Source of the DNA: a virus
Taxonomy: Duplodnaviria > Caudoviricetes
DNA length: 64,000 nt
Virus record (IMG/VR): IMGVR_UViG_3300034161_000008
Location: 64,001 to 128,000 of that record
Strand: one strand, 5' to 3'
The position numbers and the translations under genes are program-made. Below the pieces are notes generated by a model that saw nothing but the letters and a program-made list of their open reading frames with translations, made no database searches and was not told the origin of the DNA. Each line of letters opens with the position of its first letter. The first letter of the stretch is position 1. Of this stretch, positions 4,987 to 60,082 are shown piece after piece.

Positions 4987-5044
4987 CATAACGCCCCTTT
5001 CCCCATTAGGCCTCGTGAGCTTGACTGGGGAAAGGGGCTTATGG
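4987..5044. terminator. CATA-hairpin-TATG element between convergent genes
   Basis: cata..GCCCCTTTCCCCA / TGGGGAAAGGGGC ttatgg; no U-tract. Confidence 0.75.
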
Positions 5045-5047
5045 CAC

Positions 5048-5467
5048 TCAGGTTTCGAGGACTTTCATCCTCGCACCGAACAGCTTCACCAGATCCTCGC
5101 GTATAGCAGGTTCTGGTGCGTAACGCAACCAGCCGGGCATTGCCTTAATCACGTCGGTACAGATGTGCCGAAGGGTCATTGGGGTCAGCTCGCGCTGGTG
5201 TAGTTCGTCCAAGCAAAGCTCTTTCGAACTCTTACCATTCCAGATCGCGCGGTTGAGCTGGATGCCGATGTTCAGAGAGTCTTCACGCTTGACCAATGAC
5301 ATCGCTTTGTTAAGCTTTGCCAAAGTCTCAGCATCAACACCTTCCGAACCTTCTTTGATCTGAGCGAAGAAGCTCGTCAGAAACAGCATCCGCTTCGTGC
5401 GATTCGGTAGAAGTAAGGAAAGTAGTGCAGTGCCGAAACCACCGGCCCACTTCCGAATTGCGTTCAT
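5048..5467 (-). CDS. Hypothetical protein
   Basis: Start MNAIRKW follows an AGGTG element just after the RNase H stop. Confidence 0.65.
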   Translation of the reverse strand: MNAIRKWAGGFGTALLSLLLPNRTKRMLFLTSFFAQIKEGSEGVDAETLAKLNKAMSLVKREDSLNIGIQLNRAIWNGKSSKELCLDELHQRELTPMTLRHICTDVIKAMPGWLRYAPEPAIREDLVKLFGARMKVLET

Positions 5468-5501
5468 GTGCATCACCTGGTTGTTTGTGGAAAATGGAAC
5501 T

Positions 5502-7097
5502 CTACGAAACGATTCGCAAGTTAGAGTAAACCCCTGCCCAAATCCCTTTGTCCTCTCCAGCCTCCACCACAGTTGCGTAGCGGAAAGATGTAGGCGACTC
5601 AAGCCAAGAAACAATCTTGACCTGTGGCTTCAAGCCTTCCAAACGTTTCAAAGCATTCCTGTCGAGTAAGTCGATCCCCAACGTTAGAGTCACTTTAGCG
5701 GACTTCGTGTCCTGGCCAACACCGTAAAGCGCCTCTGTTGGCAGAGACGCAAAGCCAACGTTGTACTCAGACTTCAGGGTTTGGATTGCTTCTATTTCCT
5801 CTCCCCCGCCTTTGATCTTCTTCGTTTTAAGGGTCGTCTCATAGAGAATAGACGTCAAATCTGTCGAAACGATCGACGGGTCACCCGCCAGATACAAATC
5901 GAGGATATCGGCCAGTTGAGACAACGACTCGACAGCACGCACAGCCAGGCGAGGTGGGTTCAGTTCCCGTGCCAGTGGTTCCAGCGGGTCCATGCCAAAC
6001 AGATCCAAACGGAACAGCTTCGGATAGTTCAGAACGTTCTCGCCCCACTCAGTCAGCTCTTTGTGAGTCTGAGCTTTGAACACCTGATCCAGACGCAACA
6101 TTACAATCGTGTCACGCTCGTTGGCATTCTTGATCTGGAAGTTGCGCACCAGCTCAATTGCAGGATCTGGAGTAGCCAGCTTGACCACCGAGAACGCACC
6201 GTCGGACATGCGCTTGCCCAACAGGTCGTCTTCCTTACCATGGTCGCCCATGTAATAGAAGCCAGGCTCGTTGTACGCGGCAAGCGTATTGAAGTAGCAA
6301 CGACGATTCGCCAACATGGCGTTCTTTTCGGTGTCGTACTTCCAGTAGCCGTCAGCAGTGGTGACTTTGATCTGCTGTTCCTGAATGCCTTTCTTGGACA
6401 GGATCACGCCGTAAGAAGCGTAGTTGTCCGCGATGGTGTTGCCCAGGTTGTCGTTATGCCCACGCACCCAATCGAAACGAATCTTGATGCCACGACCATT
6501 AAGAGTATCGCGAGCAGCCAGAAGTTCCTTCCAGTATTCCACGTTGGCCACTGGTTGTTGGTCAGCCTTGATCCAGCCTGCCTTTTCCCAACGATCAACT
6601 TGACCGGTAGTAAGGTTCTTCTGAACGTACTCGGAGTCCGTCAGAATCTGGACGCTAGTAACGTCATATTCCAGTGCGTGCAACAGAGCCCGCGTCGTCG
6701 ACGTGAGTTCTGCGATGTTGTTCGTGACTTCCCCTGGAAAGCTACCCCAGCCATCGATGTAATGGATTGGAGTAATTTGCAACAGAGGCTCGCCATTCGA
6801 AACGAAGGTGTTCGCAACCACTTTGGTTACGTAACCTTCCGCCGTCAGGATATGGTCTTGGTTACCAGTGCCTTTCTTTGGAGCTGCCGAGGAGAACATG
6901 TAACCATGCAGACCCCACCCACCGCTACCGCGAGATGGTTTACAACCACCGTCGGTGTACAGCACCAGACCCTGAACGATCGGCGGACCTTTAAGGATCT
7001 CATCAATCTCCTTGGTACTGAACTGCGGCAGAAGAGGAATATGTGGATGTCGGGGTTGTACAACAATCTCACTCCCCGGTACGATAAGCTTTGCCAT
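5502..7097 (-). CDS. rnhA: Ribonuclease HI with long C-terminal extension (phiKZ gp155-like)
   Basis: Catalytic motifs LYTDGGC, TNNIAELTS, ILTDSEYV and WVRGHNDNLGNTIADNYA. Confidence 0.92.
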   Translation of the reverse strand: MAKLIVPGSEIVVQPRHPHIPLLPQFSTKEIDEILKGPPIVQGLVLYTDGGCKPSRGSGGWGLHGYMFSSAAPKKGTGNQDHILTAEGYVTKVVANTFVSNGEPLLQITPIHYIDGWGSFPGEVTNNIAELTSTTRALLHALEYDVTSVQILTDSEYVQKNLTTGQVDRWEKAGWIKADQQPVANVEYWKELLAARDTLNGRGIKIRFDWVRGHNDNLGNTIADNYASYGVILSKKGIQEQQIKVTTADGYWKYDTEKNAMLANRRCYFNTLAAYNEPGFYYMGDHGKEDDLLGKRMSDGAFSVVKLATPDPAIELVRNFQIKNANERDTIVMLRLDQVFKAQTHKELTEWGENVLNYPKLFRLDLFGMDPLEPLARELNPPRLAVRAVESLSQLADILDLYLAGDPSIVSTDLTSILYETTLKTKKIKGGGEEIEAIQTLKSEYNVGFASLPTEALYGVGQDTKSAKVTLTLGIDLLDRNALKRLEGLKPQVKIVSWLESPTSFRYATVVEAGEDKGIWAGVYSNLRIVS

Positions 7098-7149
7098 TTT
7101 AAGACCCTTTGGATCGCGTATTCAAAAGATCTGTCGGTCCAATAAAGAC

Positions 7150-7620
7150 TTACTTTTCTTTCTCAGCGTTGCAGTTTTTGATGTAGTCGTCGTAGCTCTG
7201 ACGCATCTGACGACGGATGCTGATCGTGTACTGTCGCACTTCACCGAGGTGCTTCATCACAATCATGTCGATCTTGCGATCTTCTTCATCACTCACACCG
7301 CGCGGGGGTAGTGTGGGTAATTCAGGCATCGGTTGGAATATGGGCATGTTGTAAATCGGACAGCCCTTCTTACTTGTCGCTGGTGTCGGGCTTGGAATCG
7401 GGGGCGTGGGTAGCACCGATTGGGCAGGCGACATAAATGGTACGGCGGAGGCCTCGGATTGTTTCCAACCGTTGGGACCCCGCTCGTACACGACAACGAT
7501 GCGAGAAGCACCGGATTGATCATTGACTGAAGGGATGTCGAGACGCAAACCCCCGGAATCATTAGTAGCGCAGGCGGGCAGCAAAAGCAGCACCGCCATG
7601 CTCAAGTGTCTCAACTTCAT
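7150..7620 (-). CDS. Predicted lipoprotein, o-spanin-like
   Basis: Basic N-terminus, hydrophobic stretch and lipobox-like LLPA-C17; Pro-rich segments and extra Cys residues; start overlaps the upstream membrane gene by 4 nt. Confidence 0.55.
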   Translation of the reverse strand: MKLRHLSMAVLLLLPACATNDSGGLRLDIPSVNDQSGASRIVVVYERGPNGWKQSEASAVPFMSPAQSVLPTPPIPSPTPATSKKGCPIYNMPIFQPMPELPTLPPRGVSDEEDRKIDMIVMKHLGEVRQYTISIRRQMRQSYDDYIKNCNAEKEK

Positions 7621-8135
7621 TGGTTCTCATCCTTACGCATTTTCTCAAGCAGGTCGCGTACGGAGTCGTAACGAGTACCTTTAGGGCCTGATGGGTTAGA
7701 GACAGCACCGCTAGCAGAACCTGGAGTACACCGAGCCAGCGCTACCGCCAGTTCGTTGTTGGTTTCCAGCAGCAGTTTGTTACGCCCGATCAAATCCGTA
7801 AGCCGGGACTCCTTCGATGTAATCGTTGCTTGCTGCTCGTCAATGGTTTTGTCATCGTCGAGAGCATTTTGCTTGAGCTGATCGTTCAAGGCTTTAAGCC
7901 CCAAGAACTCTTTGGAATCGTCTTCCAATTTCTTGTGATCAACTTTAAGCTGGATGAACTGGGTGGAGATGTCGAACAGGCGTGGAGTCAGCCAAATGTT
8001 CATGCCGATCGATCCGATGATCGCAAACAACAGAAACAGTCTTAACTTGTTTGTTCTCAGCGCCTGTGTCAGCGTTTTGTCACCTAGGAACATTTCCTTA
8101 AGGAAAGGCCATAGGAACCTTAGGATCGCAGACAT
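7617..8135 (-). CDS. Membrane-anchored coiled-coil protein, i-spanin-like
   Basis: Single N-proximal TM segment (LFLLFAIIGSIGMNIWL) followed by a heptad-rich helix and a C-proximal Cys. Confidence 0.55.
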   Translation of the reverse strand: MSAILRFLWPFLKEMFLGDKTLTQALRTNKLRLFLLFAIIGSIGMNIWLTPRLFDISTQFIQLKVDHKKLEDDSKEFLGLKALNDQLKQNALDDDKTIDEQQATITSKESRLTDLIGRNKLLLETNNELAVALARCTPGSASGAVSNPSGPKGTRYDSVRDLLEKMRKDENQ

Positions 8136-8198
8136 GATTTTATACCGCCTTCATTGTATGGGCTGATTCATAAACATAACTTTGCTGAGAGTTCAGGC

Positions 8199-9503
8199 AT
8201 GTATACCCTCAATGGCTTTGTCAACGTCACGCCGCTTGCAATCAACGTGAAAGGCGTTGTTTCGCCAATCGGTGAAATCTCTACACGCTCCCTGACCTAC
8301 TCTCGCGAAGTTGGCCAGTATGCGTTGCCAGCGTACAAAGATGTCACACTGGTAACATTCCTCAGCAGTGAAGGCGACGACTTGGTCGTAGTGCCAGACG
8401 CTGTGCGGGATCAAGTTCTGAAAATCTCACAATGGTTGTGGGATCGCGCAGTTGCTGGGGCAAGTTCTAACGATCGTGATGAGATCCTATCAGATCTTTT
8501 GACTAAGTTCCAGACTGAAGCCAACACTTTTGATTGCGGTGAAGTAATCAAATCTGCTGACGCACGTTACGCTCTGCCGGAGTGGCTGAACTGGAAGAAC
8601 GTTGCCCAAGATGCTGGCGACAACTTCATCAAGGTTTACTTCGCAGACCAGTCGTTCCAGAACCAGTACGACAAGACGTTCGTTAAACCGGTGTTCACGT
8701 TCCTGCCGGTCGACAACTTCTTCCTGGCTCCTGCTGTTGTTATTGCCGCTATTAAAGCGCGTACTAACGCCATGCGTGCGGACATGCTGGAAACGGCAAA
8801 AGAAGGCTTCCCGGAAACCATCCAGTGGGGTGACTCGTTTGACTACGTGTCTCCTCTGGACAACAGCAAAACTCCGGCTGACTTCGAGGCGCTGATCTAC
8901 GGTGCTGCCGGTAACAACATCGACACGATCAAAGACGCCATCACGACTGAGATTCTCAAAGAGTCTACGCACACTCGTGACGAATGGGTCAAGATCCTGC
9001 CCGATCTGTTCAAGCGCACCGAAGTGATCCTGACGCCGATCTGGGACAAACTGGCCATCCCTGACAGCAACCAAGTCTCGGGTATCTACTCCCCAGTAAC
9101 GCTGCTGTCTCGGGCGATGTCTGTGGTCAAGCAAACCGCTATCGGCTACGCAGCCTATCACGTTGAGCAATATGCTGAACTGACTGGCCACCCGTACAAG
9201 TCGCTGGCAATGACCGCCATCGGTGGTCCTGAGAACCGTGACGACAAGTTCCGTCTGTCCCAGTTCTTCCCCGACTACATCAACGTTGGTGCAACTACCA
9301 ACGACTTCTCGCGCATGGGCAAATATACGACCGACTGGTTGTATATGCTGGCCGAGATGATGCTGATCGCTGAAAGCATGACTGCTTATAGCGACATTCC
9401 TCGGGGCATGACGCGCCTGACTCGTGAAGGGATCATGTACGTAGTCAAAAGCTACGACAAGACTCAGTACCTGGTTGCGGCTAAGAACAACTTCGTTAGC
9501 TGA
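8199..9503 (+). CDS. Virion structural protein (phiKZ gp157-like)
   Basis: Start re-called at MYTLNGFV...SPIGEISTRSLTYSRE; position after the RNase H block matches phiKZ order. Confidence 0.65.
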   Translation: MYTLNGFVNVTPLAINVKGVVSPIGEISTRSLTYSREVGQYALPAYKDVTLVTFLSSEGDDLVVVPDAVRDQVLKISQWLWDRAVAGASSNDRDEILSDLLTKFQTEANTFDCGEVIKSADARYALPEWLNWKNVAQDAGDNFIKVYFADQSFQNQYDKTFVKPVFTFLPVDNFFLAPAVVIAAIKARTNAMRADMLETAKEGFPETIQWGDSFDYVSPLDNSKTPADFEALIYGAAGNNIDTIKDAITTEILKESTHTRDEWVKILPDLFKRTEVILTPIWDKLAIPDSNQVSGIYSPVTLLSRAMSVVKQTAIGYAAYHVEQYAELTGHPYKSLAMTAIGGPENRDDKFRLSQFFPDYINVGATTNDFSRMGKYTTDWLYMLAEMMLIAESMTAYSDIPRGMTRLTREGIMYVVKSYDKTQYLVAAKNNFVS

Positions 9504-9511
9504 GGCACAAG

Positions 9512-10126
9512 ATGGCGAACAATATTCCACCACCGGGACTCCGAGGGATTTACACGCTCCTGGAACCCTTCAAGGCAAAGCTGCTGGATAAGGTGGCCTA
9601 CACCTGCGTATCGACTCGGGGCATCAACGAGCTGATCAATAGCGGCATCGACGTGTTCTCGGTGTACTACCAGCCGAACAACATCCCTCAGGAGAAGTAC
9701 AACGAAGACATCGTCAATGGAATGATGATCGTTACGTTCCAAGCGGGTGCTGGTGTTTGGTTGGATGTTCCTTCTACCTACATCGACGGCCTGCCTGATC
9801 TGAACGGGATTCCGTACAGCCCTCTGGTTGTGGCATTGCGCTTAGGCGCAGTCGCCGACAGCTCTGACCTTTCTTACTTGCAGTCGCGTTTGGAAGGGGT
9901 GGTTAAAGAGGAGCTCGGAATCGTCGTGACTTCTGAGCTGGTGTTGGTCGGTCAGCAGACTTTGGTGTCTGATGCGGATCACAAGCTGGTTGAGGCGTCT
10001 CGCGATGTCAACAAGGCAGCAGCTGATACCGACTACTCCAAGTACCTGGCCGAGAAAACTCGAGCAGATGCACTGGCGTTGAAGGTTACTCAGCTGGAAG
10101 ACTACATCAAGTCTAAAGGCCTGTAA
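9512..10126 (+). CDS. Conserved jumbo-phage protein, probably virion-associated
   Basis: Co-transcribed with the upstream structural gene; C-terminal coiled coil. Confidence 0.65.
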   Translation: MANNIPPPGLRGIYTLLEPFKAKLLDKVAYTCVSTRGINELINSGIDVFSVYYQPNNIPQEKYNEDIVNGMMIVTFQAGAGVWLDVPSTYIDGLPDLNGIPYSPLVVALRLGAVADSSDLSYLQSRLEGVVKEELGIVVTSELVLVGQQTLVSDADHKLVEASRDVNKAAADTDYSKYLAEKTRADALALKVTQLEDYIKSKGL

Positions 10127-10127
10127 G

Positions 10128-10163
10128 GGCATAGAGCCGGGGCTGGTCCCCGGCCTTATGCTG
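10128..10163. terminator. CATA-hairpin-TATG element between convergent genes
   Basis: ggcataga GCCGGGG ctggt CCCCGGC cttatgc. Confidence 0.75.
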
Positions 10164-10165
10164 TC

Positions 10166-11023
10166 TCACACGTTCGGAGCAGAAATCGGCGCAACCGAAG
10201 TCACTTTGCCTGCTGTGAAATTACCAGTCACTTCGCCATTACCGTTCACCAAGAAGTCACCAGTCACAGCCATGTTACCGGTCTGTGTGTAGTTACCCTT
10301 CAAGGTGAAGTTGCCGTCGAGGTTGAAGTCGCCTTTCCAGTTCGTGGTTGGGCAAGTCCAAGTCGTCGTACCGCCAGCAATGCCCGTGACGTCCTGACCT
10401 TCCATCCGAATGGTCGTGCCCTTGTAGTTCTTGGACTCGATCAACCCAGTGGCAGATTCAATGGTGACGTAGTTGCCCAGAGAGTCAGTCACGAGGAACT
10501 TGGACTCTTTGGTGTTCAGCTGCATGTCCCACTCGTTGGGCTCGTTGTTCGCCGCCGAGGTGTGCAGAGCAACCAAACCATCGTGAGTCGAGATCTCCAG
10601 ATAGTACGTGTTGGTAGCATCGGGATTGGCGGCTTCGTCACTGCTACCGGAGAATGCGTAGATCACAGTCTCCAGTTTCATCAGGTGGTCATCCAGTCCC
10701 AGCTCGGACCAGTAGTATTGCGGGTCGTTAGCGAACTGCAAGATTCGCACTTTCGTACCACGACGAACATCTGGTGGCATGACTCGGTTAGAGCCCTGTG
10801 GGAGCCATGTAGCTGGAACCGTACCGGTACTGGTCAGAGTTGCATCAAACGCCCTACCGTCGACGCCAAGGCCTGCAACGGCCTGTGTATCTGCGTTGTC
10901 GGTCAACTCACCGTCCAAGAACGGAGAAATCTCGCTGAGCACCACTTCCACGACTTTACTGGAGCGGGCTTTGTTGACAGCCACCACACCGATCGATACA
11001 TCTTCCAATGCACTGACTTTCAT
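10166..11023 (-). CDS. Baseplate central spike-like protein (gp5/GpV-type OB-fold plus beta-helix)
   Basis: N-terminal PATWLP.GSNRVMPPDVRRGTKVRIL...YYW and C-terminal G-x-x-x-x-x-G beta repeats (GDFNLDGNFTLKGNYTQTGNMAVTG). Confidence 0.7.
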   Translation of the reverse strand: MKVSALEDVSIGVVAVNKARSSKVVEVVLSEISPFLDGELTDNADTQAVAGLGVDGRAFDATLTSTGTVPATWLPQGSNRVMPPDVRRGTKVRILQFANDPQYYWSELGLDDHLMKLETVIYAFSGSSDEAANPDATNTYYLEISTHDGLVALHTSAANNEPNEWDMQLNTKESKFLVTDSLGNYVTIESATGLIESKNYKGTTIRMEGQDVTGIAGGTTTWTCPTTNWKGDFNLDGNFTLKGNYTQTGNMAVTGDFLVNGNGEVTGNFTAGKVTSVAPISAPNV

Positions 11024-11091
11024 TATAAACCCCACAAAGTTAAAAATACCTGACCTAGCTATCTTTTGCAGACTGGCTAAGGGCTAATCAA

Positions 11092-13578
11092 ATGCGTATC
11101 ACTCTTTTAGAGCTGGTAGACTTTAAATGTTTGTTCAAAAGTAACATCCAACATTTCAAGTTCAAACCTTCAGAGGTCTATCAACTTATTCTCGGTACAA
11201 ACGGTAGTGGTAAGTCCTCAGTAATGAGTGAACTCACCCCATGGCCATCTGATCCAAATGACTTCACCAAAGAAGGCTACAAGGCTATAGAACTAGTCGC
11301 ACGAGGGTCTAAATACAGACTCACGTCAGAATTCAGAAAGAAGGTTACTCACACGTTCGAGAAGGATGGTGAGGAGCTGAATCCAGGAGGTACAACCTCC
11401 GTCCAGAAACAACTCTGTACACAACATTTCGCAGTTACTCAGGAAACACAGGACCTGTTGATGGACCGTGAGCGGTTCACCAAGATGAAGCCTGCTGAGA
11501 AACGCCAGTGGTTCACTCGACTGTCGGACACCAACTACGATTTCGCTATCGATGTCTACAACAAACTCTCCAAAGAGGGTCGAGACGTAGAAGGGGATCT
11601 GCGTCGTACCAAGTCCCGGCTGGTGACAGAGATTGAAAAGGTCATCACCAAGGAAGAGGAAGAGCGTCTAGAGATCGAAGTCAATGCACTGGACGACGAA
11701 ATCAAACGCCTGCTGAGCGAACACAATCCTCGCTTCGACAAACCCCACACCTTCGCTGAGAAACGTGCCAAGCACTTGGAGAAGATCGCTCAGTTCGCAC
11801 TGAAGATCCTCAAGACTCAGATCGTGGCTCCAGAAGGCTCCACAGCCAACTGCATCCAAGACATTGACGATATTGTCTACGACCTGAACACCAAGCTTTC
11901 AATGCATGAAGGCGAGCTCAACATCCACGTCAAAACTCACGACAAGCTTGAGAAAGCTGTCAGTGCTTTGCGTCAGGCTGGTGCTGAGGGCATTACCGCT
12001 CTACGCAACAAACTCGAACCTTTGCGGGTAGAGCGTGACAGCTGGTATAAGAAACAACGCCTGCAACTGGTGATACCCAACCCGGAAGAAGCTCAACGCG
12101 CTCTGGAGACGGTATGGGACTCTCTGGAGGCATGCTTCGATGCACTGCCACCGAATGAGGATCGTCGCTACTCTCAGGGTCGTTTGGTGCAGCTTCGGGA
12201 AAGTCGTGAAGCACGAACCAAGGACATTGATCAGGGTCGCCTGAACATTGCCAAACTGGTTGCCCGTCGCGAACACATGGAGGCTCACAAAGCTCAAGCT
12301 GGTTTGACGTGCCCTAAGTGTCACCACAGTTGGGTGTCTGGTTTCAGTGACGAGCATTACGCCAAGTGTATCGCTAACATCGAGACGCTGAGCGAAGCCA
12401 ACAAGTTACTGGAACAAGAAGTCAGCGAGATCGACGAACAGATCGATGGTGTCGTTAACTACGCCAACACCTACCGTGAGTTCACTCGCATCTCCCAGAA
12501 CTGGCCTGCACTGATGCCACTGTGGGATTACTTGGCGGAAGAGAAGCTGGTTATCAACTTCCCATCCAAAGCCAAGGGCGTGTTGTCGATCTTCCAAGCT
12601 GATCTGGTCCATGCACAAAGCGCAGTGCGTTGTGAGCGTGAACTTGAAGAGATCCAGCGAATCATCTCCGCAGCTTCTGAGTCTGAAGATGAGAACTTAG
12701 AAGACGCGCTAGATGAACTGGCAACGGTTGAAGCATTGGTCCACGAGATCACTGACCGTATCCAGACCATTCGCAAACAGATCTCTCTGTACGCTGGCTA
12801 CAAATACCAACTGGCAGAAGTGGGCGAAGCGAACGTTACGATCATTCGCATGATGGAAGAGTCTCAGACCCACACTGAGCAAGAGATAGAAGCGAGCTAC
12901 CACCAACTGCTGAGTTCGATGATTTCGAACGCCACGCACACGATGGTGAAGAAGCGCGACAGTCTGCAAAACGTTCGTCAGCAACGGGCAGTCGTCCGTG
13001 CTTTGGAACAACAGATTGAAGACGCTACCGCTGACGATCAAGCGTACAAAGCGCTGATCAAAGAACTCTCGCCAAAGGAAGGTCTGATCGCAGAAGGCTT
13101 GCTCGGATTCATTCGCAATTTTACTGGACAGATGAATCATCTGATTCACAAAATCTGGACGTACCCTTTGCAAGTTCGTCCGTGCGGTGGTGAAGTCGAA
13201 GGCAGTGCTGACCTCGATTACAAGTTCCCAATGATGGTGTCCTCTAAAACGAATATCGTCCCTGACGTTAATCGTGGTTCCAGTGGGCAGCAAGAGATTG
13301 TGAACTTGGCGTTCAAGGTTGTGTCCATGCGCTATATGGGCATGGCTGACTTCCCTCTGTTCCTCGATGAGTTTGGGGCTTCGTTTGACGAGGCTCACCG
13401 TAACAGCGCAATGGCTGTGGTCAAGACGCTGATGGAGCAGCAAAGCTTCTCTCAACTGTTTATGGTTTCTCACTACGAGGGCAACCACGGCGCACTCACT
13501 AATGCCGAAGTCATGGTGCTCTGCCCACAGAACATCACCGTACCCGCCAAATACAACCAACATGTTGAATTGAACTAG
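11092..13578 (+). CDS. sbcC: SbcC/Rad50-like SMC ATPase (phiKZ gp165-like)
   Basis: Walker A GTNGSGKSS, central coiled coil with zinc hook CPKC, signature RGSSGQQE, Walker B/D-loop PLFLDEFGASFD and H-loop FMVSH. Confidence 0.93.
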   Translation: MRITLLELVDFKCLFKSNIQHFKFKPSEVYQLILGTNGSGKSSVMSELTPWPSDPNDFTKEGYKAIELVARGSKYRLTSEFRKKVTHTFEKDGEELNPGGTTSVQKQLCTQHFAVTQETQDLLMDRERFTKMKPAEKRQWFTRLSDTNYDFAIDVYNKLSKEGRDVEGDLRRTKSRLVTEIEKVITKEEEERLEIEVNALDDEIKRLLSEHNPRFDKPHTFAEKRAKHLEKIAQFALKILKTQIVAPEGSTANCIQDIDDIVYDLNTKLSMHEGELNIHVKTHDKLEKAVSALRQAGAEGITALRNKLEPLRVERDSWYKKQRLQLVIPNPEEAQRALETVWDSLEACFDALPPNEDRRYSQGRLVQLRESREARTKDIDQGRLNIAKLVARREHMEAHKAQAGLTCPKCHHSWVSGFSDEHYAKCIANIETLSEANKLLEQEVSEIDEQIDGVVNYANTYREFTRISQNWPALMPLWDYLAEEKLVINFPSKAKGVLSIFQADLVHAQSAVRCERELEEIQRIISAASESEDENLEDALDELATVEALVHEITDRIQTIRKQISLYAGYKYQLAEVGEANVTIIRMMEESQTHTEQEIEASYHQLLSSMISNATHTMVKKRDSLQNVRQQRAVVRALEQQIEDATADDQAYKALIKELSPKEGLIAEGLLGFIRNFTGQMNHLIHKIWTYPLQVRPCGGEVEGSADLDYKFPMMVSSKTNIVPDVNRGSSGQQEIVNLAFKVVSMRYMGMADFPLFLDEFGASFDEAHRNSAMAVVKTLMEQQSFSQLFMVSHYEGNHGALTNAEVMVLCPQNITVPAKYNQHVELN

Positions 13579-13586
13579 GAGTTGAC

Positions 13587-14339
13587 ATGAGTCACGTTGA
13601 AGACACTATCACTAAGCTGGAATCGCTGCGCCGCATCGCCGGTGCTTTGCATAACGACATCGAAGGCCTGCTGGAAGACCTGAAAGTCTCCTCGGCACCT
13701 GCGCTGATCGACACGCCGCTGGTACACACCCACGCCCCTGCTGTAGATCTTCCGTACGTTCAAGACCCGGTCAACCCAACTGGCCAAGTCCGCGATGCTT
13801 TCCATTCGGCGAAACCACCAGTCGACGATCCGAAACGCACCCTGCAACCAGTTCGCCGCGAAGCCGTCATCCATCAAGCCGGTCGTCAACCACAACCGCT
13901 GGGCGATGCAGTTGAAGAACTGCTCAGCGCCGTTGAAGCCAATGCTGCCAGCCAGCGCGGTCCAAAGTCTCCGGGTGAAGTGCTAACTCAGTACATGTCG
14001 CCTGCAATCCTGACCGGCGGCCGTGGTTTCGTACAGCCCGGTGCCAGTGGTCTGAAACGTTATCGCGAAACGCTGCTGAACAACGATGACCTCAAACCCG
14101 ACGAACTGGTAACCTACCCTGACGGTTTCTACTCCGCCGACCCACAAGGTCAAGACGAGTTCTTCATCAAGACCCCGAACTTCATGGTTCTGGTCCACGG
14201 CCTGCGTAGCACTCCTGGTCTGCTAGTGTTCCTGCGCAGCAGCATGGGTGAAGCGGTTGATCAGGGTTCTCTGTCCCTGGGCGAGCGTCTGCAACTGTCG
14301 CAAGAGCTGGACGTCGTTCTGTCATCCCTGCCGGAATAA
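13587..14339 (+). CDS. Hypothetical protein with Pro-rich linker
   Basis: RBS AGGAG before the ATG; N-terminal helix, Pro-rich middle and globular C-terminus. Confidence 0.75.
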   Translation: MSHVEDTITKLESLRRIAGALHNDIEGLLEDLKVSSAPALIDTPLVHTHAPAVDLPYVQDPVNPTGQVRDAFHSAKPPVDDPKRTLQPVRREAVIHQAGRQPQPLGDAVEELLSAVEANAASQRGPKSPGEVLTQYMSPAILTGGRGFVQPGASGLKRYRETLLNNDDLKPDELVTYPDGFYSADPQGQDEFFIKTPNFMVLVHGLRSTPGLLVFLRSSMGEAVDQGSLSLGERLQLSQELDVVLSSLPE

Positions 14340-14380
14340 GGCATAGAGCCCCAGCCCTAAAAAGGCTGGGGCTTATGACG
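14340..14380. terminator. CATA-hairpin-TATG element between convergent genes
   Basis: ggcataga GCCCCAGCC ctaaaaa GGCTGGGGC ttatgac. Confidence 0.75.
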
Positions 14381-15613
14381 TCAAACGTCTTTGCAGATCT
14401 TCATGAAGAAGGCTGGCGAGATTTCGTCTGGCCGGTACGGGTAGCGGCTGTTGTCGATGTTGCGCTGAGCCATTGCGTCTACAGTTTGGAAGTTGTAGTT
14501 CGGGATCAGCGATTCCTGAATGTGAACAGACCACTGGGTGTCTTCGTAGACGTACCAGTATTCAGAGATCTTACCGAAGCCCACCCGCAACGGCCAAATA
14601 GGAGGCACGTGTGAAACGTACATCCCCGGCAACTGAGCGTTCTCAAGCTTGGACAGCTCAACGTACAGATCGTTGGTATCCACCACCACAAAGAAGCTCT
14701 GTGGTAGGGTGGCGTATGCCTCGATGAAAGCATCGGACTTCAGATCAGCAACCGAGAGTTCAAACTTGTTGCGCTCATTCTTCTCGTATGGCAGCGAGGA
14801 GAAGTCCAGAAACGGTTCCGACTCGTAGAAGCGCTTAGCCATCGGATAGTTCTGGAAGTCGATGCAATACTGGTGATCGCCCACTCGGTAGTAGGTGTTG
14901 TCCAGTACGTGCAGATAACCACCCAACACCAACAGCATCGTGCGATCACCAATGTCTTTGCCGATGTCGATGTACGTCTGTTGCGAGTACAGTCCGTCCG
15001 GCGACTGTTTATAGAGCATTTCCTTGGTGATAGGAATCAGCTCCAGTTCACCGACTTCACGGAAACTGTGGACGCCCACTTGAGCTTCCAAAGACTTCTG
15101 GCGAGAGACATCACCTTTCATTACACGAATGCCTTTGTAAGCTTTGTCCGTGACGTGAAAGAAGCCGTTGACCGAAACCAGACAGTTCTTAACGAACAGA
15201 TCAACATCCAGTCCGGACTTGGTCAGATACAACGAAGTCTTGGCACCCGGTGGCAGTTCCGTGTCCGGCGCGAACAGGTCGTGGATCGGCGCTACGGTGT
15301 AACCTGCGTGGAATGCATCGGCGTAACGAACGAACGTCGTGTCGATCTTTGGGATCGTGTCAGACGTCGGTAAAGTGAGGTTGCCGTTGGTGACCAGCCA
15401 GTCGGAAAACGTTACATCCAGAGTGCCCACTTTATCCCGAATGTCGGCAAAATCCAAAGACACTGGAGCGTCCAGAAAACTGTTGGTTAGAACAGCGAAG
15501 ACTTTGGAATAAAGAGAGTAAATTTGGATGAAGGTAAGTGCCGAAAGATCAAGGTCTTGCCACCGGGTCTCCCCGTCGATTGGTTTGGCGATTGCGGAGA
15601 CAAGCTGGTACAT
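14381..15613 (-). CDS. Virion structural protein (size and position like phiKZ gp130)
   Basis: 410 aa, divergent from the tail-fibre genes; NCLVSVNGFFH-type beta motifs typical of phiKZ-like baseplate proteins. Confidence 0.6.
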   Translation of the reverse strand: MYQLVSAIAKPIDGETRWQDLDLSALTFIQIYSLYSKVFAVLTNSFLDAPVSLDFADIRDKVGTLDVTFSDWLVTNGNLTLPTSDTIPKIDTTFVRYADAFHAGYTVAPIHDLFAPDTELPPGAKTSLYLTKSGLDVDLFVKNCLVSVNGFFHVTDKAYKGIRVMKGDVSRQKSLEAQVGVHSFREVGELELIPITKEMLYKQSPDGLYSQQTYIDIGKDIGDRTMLLVLGGYLHVLDNTYYRVGDHQYCIDFQNYPMAKRFYESEPFLDFSSLPYEKNERNKFELSVADLKSDAFIEAYATLPQSFFVVVDTNDLYVELSKLENAQLPGMYVSHVPPIWPLRVGFGKISEYWYVYEDTQWSVHIQESLIPNYNFQTVDAMAQRNIDNSRYPYRPDEISPAFFMKICKDV

Positions 15614-15688
15614 GGGCCTTCCCTATATGCTATGGTCGGTAGGAATTTATCGCGGAGTCTATACCATTACAGCCTAGGAGCCATCACA

Positions 15689-22055: not shown

Positions 22056-22634
22056 GTGGAAAACGATTACAACAAACCCTCAGAAGTGCTGGTATACGAC
22101 CTGATCGTTTATGCCAACGGAACGGCAGTCCCACATTCGGATCTAGTGTTCGGTTTGCCAGAAGCGTTCGCTCCTTATGCCTCAGATCCACTTCGGCGAG
22201 ATACGCGCGTTACTGTTTCAGCTTTGTTGTATCCATTTGCCCGCCAAAGAGGCAAAGTGGTACTGACGTATCGCCGTTTAGCACTGGAACAATTTATACC
22301 AGAGTTTGAAGACGTACCGATTGAAGTTCTACGTCTGCCATTCACTGCGCACCAAGTCCTACCACAGATCAACGCACGCTACGGCTTGAGTCTGTCTGTG
22401 CTGGACATTGAAGACACTTTGTTTAGCGAAGCATCGACAACCTACGGCATCAAGGCTCGAGCAGAGTCGTTGGCGTGGCAAGGCGTGCTTGAGATCGAGA
22501 CGACTTACATCGAGACTCGATTGGACGAACTGATCCGCGTGACTTCCCTTGATGGTTTCCATTACGTGAACTACCAAGGCGATCTTAGCGATCTGATCGT
22601 CGAGACACAACTCAGTGGTTTTGATGCGGCATAA
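22056..22634 (+). CDS. Tail-associated paralog-family protein
   Basis: RDTRVTV...GKVVLTYRRLAL...QINARYGLSL..LDI...AESLAWQG domain plus two L..LI..T.L.GF motifs; domain shared with 26136-29603 and 59623-60027. Confidence 0.7.
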   Translation: MENDYNKPSEVLVYDLIVYANGTAVPHSDLVFGLPEAFAPYASDPLRRDTRVTVSALLYPFARQRGKVVLTYRRLALEQFIPEFEDVPIEVLRLPFTAHQVLPQINARYGLSLSVLDIEDTLFSEASTTYGIKARAESLAWQGVLEIETTYIETRLDELIRVTSLDGFHYVNYQGDLSDLIVETQLSGFDAA

Positions 22635-22698
22635 GGCACCTCCCTGAAGCATCCTAGCCTTTAGAGGGCTCAGGTGCTTCAGGGAGGCTCTATGCTGC
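22626..22698. terminator. Long CATA-hairpin-TATG element between convergent genes
   Basis: gcggcataa..CCTCCCTGAAGCATCCT / AGGTGCTTCAGGGAGG ctctatgctg. Confidence 0.75.
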
Positions 22699-22759
22699 TG
22701 CGTAAGGCGTTTGCTACACAAACCGATACCATTTAAAGGCTACCTGTCTGTCACGGCTC

Positions 22760-34614: not shown

Positions 34615-34678
34615 AAAAAAAAAAGAGGTTGGTATGGACATAGCCCCCTACCCCGAAGGGTAGGGGGTTTATGCCGTC
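34615..34678. terminator. CATA-hairpin-TATG element with upstream A10 tract
   Basis: A10...gacatag CCCCCTACCC cgaa GGGTAGGGGG tttatgccgt. Confidence 0.78.
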
Positions 34679-36555: not shown

Positions 36556-36581
36556 TGCACATACTCGTTGGGTGGGTACAG

Positions 36582-36622
36582 AGCATAAAGCCCCCTAGGC
36601 AGTTTTTACCACCTAGGGGTTT
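36582..36622 (-). terminator. Hairpin followed by TATG (minus strand) inside paralog array
   Basis: agcataaagc CCCCTAGG ... CCTAGGGG ttt. Confidence 0.65.
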
Positions 36623-38371: not shown

Positions 38372-38381
38372 AAAGCCTCCA

Positions 38382-38413
38382 CGTCATAGAACCTGCCGAG
38401 TCGCCCCGGCAGG
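38382..38413 (-). terminator. Hairpin followed by TATG (minus strand) upstream of paralog array
   Basis: cgtcatagaa CCTGCCG agtcgccc CGGCAGG. Confidence 0.6.
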
Positions 38414-38422
38414 CTCAGTGTT

Positions 38423-43377: not shown

Positions 43378-43395
43378 ATTGAACTGAGTTTCACT

Positions 43396-43440
43396 GCGGC
43401 ATAAACCCCATCTCCAAGGATTGCTCCAAGGAGATGGGGA
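43396..43440 (-). terminator. Hairpin plus TTATGCCGC after major capsid gene
   Basis: gcggcataaa CCCCATCTCC ... GGAGATGGGG. Confidence 0.75.
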
Positions 43441-47914: not shown

Positions 47915-48058
47915 AACTGACTCTACCGGTTACCCCGCAACAAAAAAATAAGTAATGAACGAAAAAAAGAGGAACCCGTGAGGGCTCCTCCTCAACACTC
48001 CTCGATAGCCTTAGGGCCATTCGGGGAGTGTTGAGTCTTTTTGCTTTTATGCCGTCGC
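47906..48058. terminator. Back-to-back terminator hairpins flanked by GCGGCATAA and TTATGCCG
   Basis: A7-GAGGAACCC gtga GGGCTCCTC (minus-strand U-tract) and CTCAACACTCC...GGAGTGTTGAG-tcttttt (plus strand). Confidence 0.75.
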
Positions 48059-48697
48059 GCTAGGAAAGCCAGGACGTTCTGCGGAGTTGCCGATGATGCG
48101 GACCCAGTGATGGAAATCCGGGTAGTCGTGAGCTACCAGGTGAAACTCCATGGAGCCGTCATCGTATTCGCCGAAGTAATAACTCAAGCGTAACGAACCT
48201 GCGCACAGTTCTATCTCGCGACAGAATGCAACGAAGGCCGTACCAGTACCAAACTCTTGAAGCTCAGGAGCGGCTCGCTGGTCTTTGCACTGAGTGATTG
48301 CAGTAGCTACACCTTTATCGATACCTTCGCCCAAATACACAACGTGCTTGAGGCAGATTTCCGATACACGACGAGCGTGCTCACGACGGAACAGAACCAC
48401 GAGATCTGGTTTGTCCAGCGTGTAGGTGTAACCAAGGATTGGATGCGGTGCCCAGTACATGTCCACTGCGACTTTATAATCCACACCATCCTTTCGAATT
48501 ACTTCGAGTGATACAGTACCGTCAGGAAACCGCATCAGGGTGTACGAAGGTCGCCCACTCAGCATGGATTTAAGAATCCCACGCAGAGAGAACCTGGTCA
48601 TGTAGCTGAGCACCCGTACCAGTTGCTCGGCCGCTGCGTCAGCTACCGTGTGCTTTCGCACATGGTTCAACAGTCGATTGCGGGTATAGATGCTCAT
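48047..48697 (-). CDS. Hypothetical protein
   Basis: RBS AAGGA; last gene of the minus-strand accessory run. Confidence 0.7.
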   Translation of the reverse strand: MSIYTRNRLLNHVRKHTVADAAAEQLVRVLSYMTRFSLRGILKSMLSGRPSYTLMRFPDGTVSLEVIRKDGVDYKVAVDMYWAPHPILGYTYTLDKPDLVVLFRREHARRVSEICLKHVVYLGEGIDKGVATAITQCKDQRAAPELQEFGTGTAFVAFCREIELCAGSLRLSYYFGEYDDGSMEFHLVAHDYPDFHHWVRIIGNSAERPGFPSATA

Positions 48698-52177: not shown

Positions 52178-52190
52178 TGGAATCTCCTAG

Positions 52191-52222
52191 GGCATAAGCG
52201 GGGACCCGAAGGTCCCCTAGGA
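52191..52222 (-). terminator. UUCG-loop hairpin followed by TATG (minus strand)
   Basis: ggcataagc GGGGACC cgaa GGTCCCC. Confidence 0.7.
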
Positions 52223-52223: not shown

Positions 52224-53018
52224 TTACGCTGCAACAACAGCTTTGGTGAACTTCTTCACGTCGATGTTCAGGAACGGGAATTCTTTCGCCAGTTTCAGCG
52301 CGGCAGTGTGTGCCAGCTCGGTGAACACCAGGTGCTTGCCGATTGGGAATTCTTCGTGGTGGATCATGAAGCGGAACTTCTCGTCACCCAGGAAGAACTC
52401 ACCCTTGACACGGTAATCTTCTTCTTTGCGGCCTTCACGAGAGCTGTGGTATCCGCCGAATGCGCGAGGGCGCTGGAAGCCATCTTCGTCGTCTTGCGCA
52501 CGAGTGGTGCCGTTCAGGCGCAGGCCGTGGCCAAGCTTAACCGACAGTTTCCAGGAGCCGTCGGTCATGTGTCGGATTTCGGCGGTGTCCGAGTGGTGGT
52601 AGCTGTGGCGATGTTCTTCATCACCGAACAGGCGATTGACCAGCTCACGGGAGGCGAACTCCAGCGGATGCGGGCGGTGGTGATGCATGTGCATGTCGCC
52701 GAATGCTTCGGGTTCTGGCATATCGAGCTTCAGGTTGCCGTAGAGCTTGACAACGTCTTCCAGACGCAGCATCTCGACCAACTTGACTTGAACCAGTTCC
52801 TGCAACTGCATCTGGTCGTAGCTACCACGCGACGAACCGTTGCCTTCGAGGACCAGGTGCAGGGTGTGTTGCAGACCGGTGTCGAGCTGGGTCACTTCGA
52901 AACTGAGGGAAGGGAGGTCGCTCACGCTAATCGTGCCTTCACCCAACTCGCCGAAGTTTACCAGCTTGGCAGTACCGATAGCAAACTCGATAGCGGCCAA
53001 TACTTTCACTTTAGACAT
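52224..53018 (-). CDS. Highly codon-biased hypothetical protein with His-rich linker
   Basis: Has its own upstream promoter motif and downstream hairpin; contains DMHMHHHRPHP. Confidence 0.8.
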   Translation of the reverse strand: MSKVKVLAAIEFAIGTAKLVNFGELGEGTISVSDLPSLSFEVTQLDTGLQHTLHLVLEGNGSSRGSYDQMQLQELVQVKLVEMLRLEDVVKLYGNLKLDMPEPEAFGDMHMHHHRPHPLEFASRELVNRLFGDEEHRHSYHHSDTAEIRHMTDGSWKLSVKLGHGLRLNGTTRAQDDEDGFQRPRAFGGYHSSREGRKEEDYRVKGEFFLGDEKFRFMIHHEEFPIGKHLVFTELAHTAALKLAKEFPFLNIDVKKFTKAVVAA

Positions 53019-54757: not shown

Positions 54758-54790
54758 CTCTCTACTCCATACAGCGGATCGATAATTAAC

Positions 54791-54825
54791 GACATAAAGC
54801 CCGGCACGAAGCCGGGCCTTATGCT
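54791..54825. terminator. CATA-hairpin-TATG element
   Basis: gacataaa GCCCGGC acgaa GCCGGGC cttatgc. Confidence 0.72.
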
Positions 54826-55060
54826 AGTATTGCGTCGGTTCAGGACCCAGCTCGCGACGACGCTCACGATGCTCTTCGTCTTCACGCTTGCGATCTTCAG
54901 GACTGAGCAGCATGCGACGCCGGTCCATACGACCAGCCTGAAAAGCTGTGTCGTAGTCTTTCTTCACGCGCCGGTCAGTACAGCTATTTGCCCGCCCTTC
55001 GAAACCATCCTTTGCGCCCCGCGCCCATGCCGCTTGCTTGCGCTGTGCTGTTTTGCTCAT
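54824..55060 (-). CDS. Small basic protein, ribosome-modulation-factor-like
   Basis: AAWARGAKDGFEGRANSC...YDTAFQAGRMDR compared with RMF AHQRGYQAGIAGRSKEMC...WLGGWREAMADR. Confidence 0.5.
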   Translation of the reverse strand: MSKTAQRKQAAWARGAKDGFEGRANSCTDRRVKKDYDTAFQAGRMDRRRMLLSPEDRKREDEEHRERRRELGPEPTQY

Positions 55061-55927: not shown

Positions 55928-55941
55928 ACTTACTCCGAGGT

Positions 55942-55977
55942 GATAGAGGGAGAGCCGGAGCTCTCCCTCATGGCCGT
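55942..55977. terminator. Variant element (GATA-hairpin-CATGGCCG) between TAXI gene and dcd
   Basis: gata GAGGGAGAGC cgga GCTCTCCCTC atggccgt. Confidence 0.6.
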
Positions 55978-56871
55978 TTACTGGCGGACAGACAGAACGC
56001 TGGTCTGGATAACTTTGGCCACAGTGCGTGCCGCTGCACGTGCGTCCTTCGGTTCCATACCATTGATCCAGTCGTTGTTCACGACCACTTGTGCGTGCAT
56101 GCAGAGGGTTTTGATGTCGAACACGGAGTTGTCGGTTTTGATACCGGTGTCGCCCTTGCTGCTAACTTTGCACTCGCTGTACAGAGTGTTTTCGTTTTTG
56201 TCTTTGAGTTTGGTGAAGGAAGTTTCACCGATCTCGCCGATCAGCAGGTCGTCGCGCCATTCAGGAGCAGTCACGTCATCGCTGATGAAACCAGGACGAC
56301 CAACGTACATCAGACCGCCGATCTCGACACGCACGCCGGACTTCATTGCGAAGCCTTGCTTGGCAGCTTTGGCAGCGTCGTACCAGCTATTGAACGGAAC
56401 CAGTTTCACAGCAGCGTATTTGTCGGACTGTTTGCCGAAGTTCTTGAGGGTGATCTCAGGACCGGAACCAGCAACGTACGCAACGCCTTTGCTCAGGTTT
56501 TCAGCATCAGCCATGGCAGCAAACGTTTTCACGCTACCGGCCACTTTGCCGTGAATCCAGAACACCGCTTCAACGTGGGCATCGCTCACGTCGATATCGC
56601 GAGGCATGGCCGACGACGTTACGGCGTCAGCTTGCATGATGCCCATGACGCAGTCGCCGTCTTTCATCAGCTGTGCGGTTTCCAGGCTACCGCCGGTTTC
56701 CACCAGGTCGAGCTTGGCATTGATCTTGCGGGAGATGTCGCCACCGATGGTGTTGGCCAAGGAGGCGTAAGCACCGCCCGGCGCGCCGCCACAGAAGGTC
56801 AGGTCAGCAGGTGCAGCGTGAGCGAATGCAGTCATCAGCATTGCGGCCAGGAAAGGAATCAGTTTCTTCAC
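55978..56871 (-). CDS. TAXI-family TRAP solute-binding-like periplasmic protein
   Basis: Signal peptide ending AHA-A; [11 protein letters not shown]...ETGGSLE...[12 protein letters not shown] and G..GSG..IT motifs. Confidence 0.8.
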
Positions 56872-59162: not shown

Positions 59163-59575
59163 TGTTCTGTTTCCTTTACGGGCTCCGCTGGAGTTGGGAT
59201 GTCTACGAAGAGGTTGCCTTCTGGACCGACGCTGAGCGGGATACGCGGCGTGATGGCTTTAACGGGCTGCACTTCAACGTAGAAGATGCCTTCGCCGTCC
59301 GGCAATGGGTGAACTGGCAGTTCCAACATCGAAACGTTCAGGTCACCAGCATTGATCTTCTTGAGCAGGTCGCCCGTTGGGTACACCAGCTTGATGTCGC
59401 GAGCGATCTCTTGCAGGTCGTGACGAGCCGACTTGCTGCAAGGACCTTGACGACCCTTGATAACAAAGATCAACATCGAGCTGTCACGCTGCTGTGCTTT
59501 GAGCAGGCGGTGGCAGGCCACAACAAAGTCACTGGTGCTGCGTTCAAACTGAATGCGATAGATACCGACTAGCAT
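59159..59575 (-). CDS. Hypothetical protein
   Basis: RBS AGGAG; first gene downstream of a putative early promoter. Confidence 0.7.
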   Translation of the reverse strand: MLVGIYRIQFERSTSDFVVACHRLLKAQQRDSSMLIFVIKGRQGPCSKSARHDLQEIARDIKLVYPTGDLLKKINAGDLNVSMLELPVHPLPDGEGIFYVEVQPVKAITPRIPLSVGPEGNLFVDIPTPAEPVKETEQ

Positions 59576-59604
59576 TGAAAACTCCTTGTGTGATATTCAA
59601 GTTG

Positions 59605-59614
59605 GTAATAAGTA
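59605..59614 (-). promoter_or_regulatory. Putative early promoter TACTTATTAC
   Basis: Intergenic, 30 nt upstream of the 59575 start; shares downstream CCAAC with the 53074 copy. Confidence 0.6.
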
Positions 59615-59622
59615 ACTCAAAC

Positions 59623-60027
59623 CTACTTGGTTGGGTTTACCAAGCGAACTTGAATCATGCCGCGCCACGTAGGCGAATCAGCCTTGGCTACGACATTCAC
59701 TACTCGAACCTGTTCTGGCTGAAGATTGGGCAGGTACAGCTTTACGAAGTCGTCTTTGTTCAAACGCACGGGATCGATAACGATTTCAAGCATTCGGTAG
59801 AACAATTCCAGACTGGGACGCCCGCGGACTTCAATAGTCAGATAACCGTCGATGATGCGACTACCGAACAGATCTGGCAGAGCTATTCGTTTCCAGTAAA
59901 CGGGGTAGGGTTCACCACCTTCTACCGTAACGAGTGCTTCTGCATCAAAACCCAGACGCATTTGTTCGATGTTCTGAACGTTGCGAACCTTGCCCATGGT
60001 GCTGTTTGGGACCTTGATAATCGACAT
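59623..60027 (-). CDS. Orphan member of the tail-associated paralog family
   Basis: YPVYWKRIALPDLF...EIVIDPVRLNKDDF...AKADSPTWRG mirrors 22056 and 28719. Confidence 0.65.
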   Translation of the reverse strand: MSIIKVPNSTMGKVRNVQNIEQMRLGFDAEALVTVEGGEPYPVYWKRIALPDLFGSRIIDGYLTIEVRGRPSLELFYRMLEIVIDPVRLNKDDFVKLYLPNLQPEQVRVVNVVAKADSPTWRGMIQVRLVNPTK

Positions 60028-60043
60028 AACAAATTCCTGAGAC

Positions 60044-60082
60044 AAAAAAAAAAGAGGGTCCGAAGACCCTCTCTATGCCGTT
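60044..60082 (-). terminator. Intrinsic terminator with T10, preceded by ACGGCATAG
   Basis: Plus strand: A10 GAGGGTC cgaa GACCCTC tctatgccgt. Confidence 0.82.

Follow-up and report, generated by a model that had tools for sequence, protein, structure and literature searches.

Recurrent hairpins with a conserved TTATG tail in an uncultivated phiKZ-like jumbo phage are very probably intrinsic terminators of a kind already described

The stretch of 64,000 nucleotides analyzed in our study (the window) comprises bases 64001-128000 of one 218,436-bp contig (GC 52.7%) of the IMG/VR virus record IMGVR_UViG_3300034161_000008. Between its genes lie recurrent GC-rich hairpins that are directly followed by a short tail around the tetramer TATG, and the function of these elements is the subject of this work. 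The large genes of the window matched PHROG families of phiKZ-like phages, namely the virion structural protein family phrog_3004 (3e-219), phrog_3222 and the 'polymerase' family phrog_2943. The latter match belongs to a homologue of phiKZ gp123, the beta-like subunit of the non-virion RNA polymerase (nvRNAP), which assigns the phage to those with a split multisubunit RNA polymerase (RNAP) of the phiKZ type (Table 1). Moreover, when genes were called independently on near-identical metagenomic contigs, the gene of 735 aa received the label PhiKZ_MCP (PF25620). The closest protein relatives were found in Burkholderia phage FLC9 (50%), in the Ralstonia phages FLC4-3B, RP12, RP31, RSF1 and RSL2 and in Xanthomonas phage Xoo-sp14. 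The source of the DNA is an uncultivated phiKZ-like jumbo phage of 218 kb.

A sequence-only reading of the window had listed 13 recurrent hairpins with unrelated stems and conserved CATA and TATG flanks. Eleven of the 13 are GC-rich hairpins with the box described below, whereas the hairpin at 55942 is a variant and the site at 47906 does not belong to the set. In the whole genome the hexamers GCATAA/TTATGC and GGCATA/TATGCC were enriched 10.8-fold and 9.4-fold in intergenic DNA and ranked behind only A6 and AGGGGG. In a genome-wide fold survey with RNAfold (70-nt windows, single hairpins with a folding free energy, dG, <= -12) 46 of the 170 hairpins between genes (27%) had TATG at their 3' junction, compared with 30 of 1907 hairpins in coding sequence (Fisher odds ratio 23, p = 4e-33). 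Random intergenic windows of 17 nt contained TATG in 5.1% of cases (binomial p = 5e-21 against the hairpin junctions), and the observation itself was thereby confirmed. A stricter catalogue, in which the stem had at most one mismatch and a dG <= -11, ended a few bases from a (T)nTATG run and did not lie deep inside a gene, contained 51 strand-specific copies on 38 hairpins in the whole genome. The stems of these copies measure 7-16 bp with a dG of -11 to -27 kcal/mol, and the gap between stem and TATG ranges from -1 to 4 nt, with 1-2 nt in 36 copies. Fold z-scores reached -2.7 to -5.4 in the clear cases and -1.5 for the short stem at 52191. As had been claimed, the stem sequences are unrelated: most stems and loops differ from copy to copy while the tail stays constant.

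The conserved part is longer than a tetramer. TATG is indeed conserved at the hairpins, but it forms the center of a box YT-TATG-C-Y-G-Y (Y, pyrimidine). The full consensus reads GGGC-TT-TATG-C-Y-G-T-(C/A)-A, where the G-rich end of the stem is followed by C or T, T and TATG. After TATG, whose G is fixed by the definition of the catalogue, we counted C in 36 of the 51 copies, a pyrimidine in 50, G in 32 and T in 27, followed by C/A and A. Intergenic TATGs without a hairpin (n=85) showed no conservation of their flanks, and 27 of the 34 TATGC[CT]G words outside gene interiors adjoin a hairpin. The statement that most of the hairpins lack a U-tract holds by the strict rule (at least 5 U within 8 nt after the stem), as the tails carry only 2-4 U; nevertheless, the part of the tail next to the stem is AU-rich. 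A scan of positions 1-20000 of the window for the consensus of canonical terminators returned 21 sites with 19.4 expected and found none of the three listed sites of that range. Ordinary U-tract terminators occur elsewhere in the genome as well, about 14-16 in number.

The position of the copies relative to genes is the next line of evidence. Genes were called with a self-trained dicodon model, and the strands at 34-45 kb agree with independent pipeline calls on relatives. A gene on the same strand precedes 42 of the 51 copies, typically 5-16 nt from its stop codon. Convergent gaps hold 27 copies, which have no same-strand gene downstream there; of the 18 convergent gaps that were called, 14 are occupied, and two of the four gaps without a copy rest on weak short gene calls. 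A further 15 copies lie on the sense strand within co-directional arrays. The 18 divergent gaps of the genome contain no copy, and none of the 51 was found in a context that would suit a promoter only. A late promoter would place its TATG upstream of a middle or late gene and pointing into it, whereas 36 of the 51 copies have no same-strand gene downstream. This distribution is the one that terminators give and is unlike that of promoters; the placement is therefore that of terminators.

In 13 hairpins, 11 of them between convergent genes, the tail is present on both strands, and the remaining 25 copies are one-sided. The two-sided copies are near-perfect palindromes, as the reverse complement of the TTATGCCG tail of one strand reads CGGCATAA in front of the hairpin. 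In the convergent gaps that were printed, the stop codon is followed by a few bases, CATA(A/G), the hairpin, YTATGCYG and directly by the stop codon of the opposing gene. The palindrome-like flanks arise because two convergent terminators share one hairpin. One of the three readings offered from the sequence alone was that of outward-facing antisense promoters at the convergent sites, possibly helped by cruciform extrusion, which would expose a single-stranded TATG. The near-perfect palindromes would suit such extrusion and a few copies do lie antisense to both neighbours. However, the 25 one-sided copies have the same tail, and the same sequences coincide with mapped RNA 3' ends in 201phi2-1. 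Besides, the premise that the phiKZ nvRNAP needs a single-stranded template does not hold, since this enzyme initiates on double-stranded PCR fragments (PMC4666361, PMC12809450); the single-strand property is that of AR9. We consider this explanation extremely unlikely.

In a further reading, the same flanks would extend the stem. mRNA is generally protected by 3' hairpins, and CAUAA pairs with UUAUG in the two-sided copies and so lengthens the stem there. Hairpin and CAUA/UAUG might be recognized by a nuclease or by an RNA-binding protein, with 3' ends that result from trimming. As a general rule the stem extension fails: the tail is unpaired in the one-sided copies, and therefore pairing is not the function of the tetramers. 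Moreover, the 3' ends of 201phi2-1 described below lie at a constant 8 nt past the stem in all eight printed cases, which is the classic distance of termination, and cloned terminators of that phage cut the expression of a downstream reporter in the uninfected host. An element of processing or RNA stability is therefore, in our opinion, very unlikely.

That similar hairpins might have been noted in relatives was correctly suspected, as they were published in 2024 for phiKZ (PMC10914365) and 201phi2-1 (PMC11512511). With ONT-cappable-seq, Putzeys et al. (Microlife 2024, PMC10914365) located 133 termination regions in phiKZ. In 61 of them a stem-loop is followed by a TTAT region with the consensus BCCYCCCCHWWDGGGRRGGBYTTATKYYGT. 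Six termination regions of phiKZ between convergent genes are bidirectional, and antisense terminators account for 9% of those mapped across all six phages of that study (PMC10914365). In 201phi2-1 a motif A (n=59) 'strongly resembles' the phiKZ motif and a second motif, B, lengthens the stem (Microb Biotechnol 2024, PMC11512511). Eight cloned terminators of 201phi2-1, which were picked for differing motifs, stopped transcription in a reporter assay in uninfected Pseudomonas chlororaphis (PMC11512511), which shows that the host enzyme can read them.

The elements of the window share with those of phiKZ the GC-rich stem-loop, the tail, the bidirectional copies between convergent genes and the occurrence of some antisense copies. 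The tail YTTATGCYGY fits YTTATKYYGT base for base, and the position matrix of our catalogue (T/C,T/C,T,A,T,G,C,Y,G,T) matches the published tail. In contrast, the stem is conserved in phiKZ (CCYCCCC...GGGRRGG; genome of 38% GC), whereas the stems in the phage studied here (53% GC) are diverse and the tail is more uniform, with C/T and then G. The phiKZ elements were mapped as RNA 3' ends, and the elements reported here are predicted from sequence. Motif A of 201phi2-1 resembles them in its hairpin followed by TTTATGYYG, and the longer stem of motif B corresponds to CATAA in the two-sided copies. When the printed transcription termination sites of 201phi2-1 were read in NC_010821, each of the eight coincided with the bracketed second Y in hairpin-(T/A)nTATG-Y-[Y]-G, at a distance of 8 nt from the stem. 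A similar register was found for a small RNA (sRNA) of phiKZ (270595-270485, minus strand), whose 3' end at 270485 lies 7 nt past the stem and whose 5' end adjoins a TATG without a hairpin.

The tail was also sought in samples of 40-50 kb from related phages, in which perfect hairpins with a TATG tail were counted and compared with the expected number. We observed 13 in the window (0.6 expected), 9 in FLC9 (0.6), 17 in RP12 (1.6), 4 in RSF1 (1.1), 11 in Xoo-sp14 (0.6), 22 in phiKZ (2.1) and 5 in 201phi2-1 (0.2), so that the tail was enriched in all six relatives. Positions 60001-100000 of SPN3US and 100001-140000 of AR9 had none among 52 and 20 tails, respectively (0.8 expected in each). Since SPN3US and AR9 lack it in these stretches, the TTATGYYG tail is limited to a clade and is not universal among phages with a split multisubunit RNAP. 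At the syntenic site after the gp129-like virion gene (34639 in the window), a terminator of the same type is also present in FLC9, RP12, RSF1, Xoo-sp14 and phiKZ. In all six phages the hairpin sequence is unrelated, with CATAA before and TTATG(C/A)CG after it; the stem turns over at this site while the flanks remain constant.

These comparisons also bear on the idea that the hairpins are dispersed mobile palindromes, similar to repetitive extragenic palindromic (REP) elements or miniature inverted-repeat transposable elements (MITEs), that have spread through intergenic DNA. Some stems are alike: GCCCGGC occurs three times, and CCCCCTACCC resembles CCCCCTGCCC. However, most stems and loops are unrelated and the tail alone is constant, while distant phages keep the tail at syntenic sites and replace the stem. 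In addition, the copies have a strand-specific location at gene ends, and no presence/absence polymorphism with target-site duplications was seen at the four sites compared among close relatives. We give this origin next to no credence.

Motif, enrichment, gene placement, identity with the motif already published and the 3'-end register of 201phi2-1 together make it very probable that the elements are intrinsic, hairpin-dependent terminators of the phiKZ and 201phi2-1 type, which are often bidirectional. Among the phiKZ-like jumbo phages that were sampled, SPN3US is the exception without this type. This is a known kind of terminator, described in 2024, in a new genome and is ordinary for the phage family. 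Two labels of the sequence-only reading, a non-canonical terminator and a stop signal specific for the phage RNAP, came close to this result, given where the copies lie and where RNA 3' ends have been mapped in phiKZ and 201phi2-1. The RNA would fold into a GC-rich hairpin with a stem of 7-16 bp, frequently with a UUCG loop. The following 7-8 nt, (Y)UUAUGCY, would replace a long U-tract by a short AU-rich stretch and end in the pyrimidine that precedes G. The AU-rich part adjoins the stem, where invasion by the hairpin would have to melt the hybrid, and release of the RNA is predicted at the second base after UAUG, 7-8 nt past the stem. At convergent genes a single hairpin would serve both strands, so that the opposite tail is seen as (C)GGCATA(A/G) ahead of the hairpin. 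By analogy with 201phi2-1, the RNA ends of this phage should lie on the Y before G (predicted ends in Table 1).

Compared with a canonical intrinsic terminator, the GC-rich hairpin, the release 7-9 nt past the stem, the AU-rich hybrid at the stem and the bidirectional use at convergent genes are the same. In contrast, the tail contains no more than 2-4 U with an A among them and GCY behind, its sequence is conserved at and beyond the release point, and a standard U-tract scan misses it. Counted back from the predicted end, Y occupies position -1 in 50 of the 51 copies, G position +1 in 32 and G position -10/-11, in the 3' arm of the stem, in 30-33. The elemental pause of bacterial RNAP, reportedly described in 2014 by Larson and colleagues and by Vvedenskaya and colleagues, is said to have the consensus G(-10) Y(-1) G(+1). 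The positions of Y and of both Gs are thus alike, although the comparison is an analogy only for phage polymerases and the pause consensus contains no hairpin. The AU-rich hybrid and the Y/G step may act like such a pause.

Several observations weigh against the terminator explanation. Nine of the 51 copies lie on the strand opposite to both neighbouring genes. Two of the nine are the second side of a palindromic copy and two lie inside gene ends and may be due to chance. At least three antisense copies (60074 in the window; 135482 and 168691 in the genome) oppose an ordinary U-tract on the sense strand. These antisense copies call for the stopping of antisense transcripts or for some other role. 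Furthermore, the canonical model leaves the conservation of A, G and CYG across genomes of 38-59% GC unexplained, and SPN3US and AR9, which are also jumbo phages that encode RNAPs, have plain U-rich tails in the sampled stretches. The relatives of this phage in public runs (about 97% identical) are assembled contigs and not RNA ends. In six contigs with a neighbour gene of 98% identity, the four terminators compared were nearly identical and without paired changes; because the close relatives are identical at the compared sites, covariation within the species is not countable.

Table 1. Candidate terminators of the window and the gene for the nvRNAP beta-like subunit (window positions; 3' ends are predicted).
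Feature	Position (strand)	Hairpin	Tail	Neighbouring genes	Remarks
Probable two-sided terminator	4984..5047	4993-5038, 13-bp stem, dG about -25 kcal/mol	TTATGGCAC (+), GTTATGTCAC (-)	between convergent 4102-4986(+) and 5048-5389(-)	
Probable two-sided terminator	10127..10165	10136-10154	CTTATGCTGT (+), TCTATGCCCT (-)	between convergent 9512-10126(+) and 10166-11023(-)	fold z -3.1 / -5.4; RNA 3' ends 10162(+), 10128(-)
Probable two-sided terminator	14340..14382	14347-14373		between convergent 13587-14339(+) and 14381-15613(-)	
Probable two-sided terminator	22626..22700	22636-22690, long	CTTATGCCGCATC (-), CTCTATGCTG (+)	after 22056-22634(+) and 22760-23395(-)	minus tail overlaps the stop codon of the + gene
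Probable two-sided terminator	34634..34678	34644-34667, UUCG/CGAA loop	TTTATGCCGTC (+)	911-aa virion protein gene 31869-34604(+); gene 34678-35070(-)	RNA 3' end 34675(+)
Probable one-sided terminator	36580..36619 (-)	36592-36619	GCTTTATGCTC (sense)	between co-directional 36625-37203(-) and 36043-36555(-)	RNA 3' end 36582(-)
Probable one-sided terminator	38381..38416 (-)	38389-38416	TATGACG (sense)	after 38423-40426(-)	next start codon 14 nt on
phiKZ gp123 homologue, nvRNAP beta-like subunit	40462-42105 (-)				phrog_2943 1.3e-146; 30% identity to gp123
Probable one-sided terminator	43395..43439 (-)	43406-43439	TTTATGCCGCAG	38 nt past major capsid gene 43478-45685(-)	RNA 3' end 43398(-)
Probable one-sided terminator	52189..52217 (-)	52200-52217, UUCG loop	GCTTATGCCC	after 52224-53018(-)	next start codon 16 nt on; RNA 3' end 52191(-)
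Two-sided element	54789..54827	54799-54817	TTTATGTCG (sense), CTTATGCTA (antisense)	within co-directional minus array	
Variant hairpin	55939..55975 (-)	55946-55969	TATCACC (sense), CATGGCCG (opposite strand)	after 55978-56871(-)	TATC, not TATG
Site listed at 60044	60051..60082	60053-60072	U10 (sense, -), CTATGCCG (antisense, +)	after 60090-61691(-)	

Some sites of the window deserve a separate comment. The element at 60051..60082 can be interpreted as a bidirectional terminator whose two tails differ in kind. A leaderless start at the ATG of its tail at 60074 (open reading frame 60075-61709, +) was considered and rejected: the frame has no PHROG match and the minus gene 60090-61691 scores far better. 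The site at 47906 was also discarded: gene 46382-47914(+) has its stop codon within GCGGCATAA (47906-47914), and a strong hairpin next to this sequence is missing. The actual terminators here are tandem hairpins at 47969-47990 and 47991-48035, which serve the convergent genes 46382-47914(+) and 48047-48697(-). One of the two has U7 as its tail on the minus strand, the other a U-rich tail on plus; together they form a bidirectional terminator of the canonical type. Next to the terminator at 34639, an A10/T10 run (34614-34623) varies in length from 9 to 12 among near-identical metagenomic relatives, and hairpin and tail are almost constant. Two antisense copies of hairpin and TATG are located inside the ends of minus genes at 29558-29591(+) and 45639-45672(+), the latter in the 5' end of the capsid gene. 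Their tails lack CYG, and they are either chance occurrences or antisense stops.

TATG is also the sole consensus of the late promoters of phiKZ, with G as position +1, as the sequence-only reading had stated; the tetramer is necessary but not sufficient, and nothing is conserved after it (PMC4666361). Yakunina et al. reported that promoter activity needs an unknown downstream sequence (PMC4666361). In a structure published in 2026, the beta-like gp123 accommodates TATG of the non-template strand in a pocket beneath the beta-lobe, and this pocket is described as 'incomplete in the transcribing complex' (PMC12809450). Of the residues that stack on TATG, the gp123 homologue of the window has F151, H331, S144, S334 and Q466 unchanged; Y406F, H185Y and K158R represent conservative exchanges, and Y399, N398 and S402 are lost. 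As the pocket is partly kept, TATG is plausibly the core of late promoters in this phage too. The elements studied here share with these promoters the tetramer and a gp123 homologue in the same genome. However, the TATGs of the phiKZ promoters have neither a hairpin nor conserved flanks, and the elements follow genes; the likeness is one of sequence only.

Nevertheless, an element could terminate transcription and, with the TATG of its tail, also provide a late start for the nvRNAP (G as +1), which would result in a stop and restart at the co-directional sites. The promoter consensus and the partly conserved pocket are compatible with such a double role. Moreover, the 15 co-directional tails point into the next gene, mostly 14-40 nt ahead of its start codon, and the CYG after TATG could be taken for the downstream sequence required according to Yakunina et al. 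Against this stand the 27 copies directed at a convergent gene from its 3' side and the nine antisense ones, with none in a divergent or promoter-only position. In phiKZ the well-studied promoter P119L and the TATG start of the sRNA (about 270596) have no upstream hairpin, and nothing after TATG is conserved in its late promoters. In the genome analyzed here TATGs upstream of genes and without a hairpin have no CYG context, and the terminated RNAs of 201phi2-1 include the G. No feature requires a restart for its explanation, as the sense tails of the co-directional copies are just as compatible with a terminator. We therefore regard a dual signal as unlikely.

It is likewise doubtful, though conceivable, that the TATG of the tail is more than AU-rich filler in the sense that one tetramer marks both starts and stops. 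At a hairpin the tetramer might stall elongation on the weak UUAU hybrid, which would make a long U-tract dispensable, or it might allow immediate re-initiation at co-directional sites. If true, this would amount to a terminator code specific for the polymerase, consistent with the absence of the tail from SPN3US and AR9. We keep the probability of a pause driven by the pocket low because the structure paper calls the pocket incomplete in the transcribing complex.

Units of a terminator and a subsequent promoter do exist in 201phi2-1, where they use a separate promoter box and not the TATG of the tail. In the stretches of that phage which we examined, an AT-rich box that resembles early promoters lies about 20-30 nt past the terminator; several mapped terminators are followed by GAGATTTATAT(C/T)A(T/C)T. 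Such a box was not seen after most copies of the phage studied here. In its genome the word GTAATAAGTAA (reverse complement TTACTTATTAC) occurs upstream of minus genes at 43358-43381 and 59603-59615 of the window and at 17359-17371 and 25536-25548 of the genome. It is located twice in divergent gaps and once just past the terminator of the capsid gene, and possibly represents an early-promoter box of the AT-rich kind found in phiKZ and 201phi2-1. The candidate early-promoter word TAAGTAA and AATAAGTAA have 13 and 6 copies in the whole genome, respectively; as the copies are too few, classes of transcription are not definable from TAAGTAA.

The phage collection contained no close record of this phage. 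A megablast search of a 5-kb stretch against it gave no match, and a search of the whole window against Rfam returned no family at the gathering threshold. More distant relatives were represented by one IMG/VR locus with 42% identity, and a metagenome scan for them found none. In public sequencing runs, relatives were present only as assembled Logan contigs, which shared no more than 0.48 of the sampled words; the compared contigs were about 90-99% alike, and they came from wastewater and peat samples. The wastewater runs labelled 'RNA-Seq' are probably DNA. Relatives of about 90-99% identity were recorded from wastewater, biofilm, activated sludge and peat/wetland in at least 14 studies, and public assemblies include two contigs of almost full length (215 and 219 kb). 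One close relative (the 219-kb ENA contig, 19003-19572) has a gene for a GIY-YIG endonuclease of 189 aa between the DUF7941 and DUF7208 genes. This gene is absent from another relative and, by gene layout, from the window (about 26065-26136), which looks like the presence/absence polymorphism of a homing endonuclease.

Taken as a stop signal, the element provides an annotation rule for transcript ends in this phage and in related uncultivated jumbo phages: a hairpin followed by YTTATGCYG, with the RNA end on the Y before G. The same rule also settles the orientation of genes at convergent pairs. The stop signal known from two Pseudomonas phages recurs with hardly a changed letter in Burkholderia, Ralstonia and Xanthomonas phages as well as in a metagenomic phage, at 38-59% GC. 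The residual value of the finding lies in the prediction of 3' ends with a precise register and in the limits of the clade in which the tail occurs.

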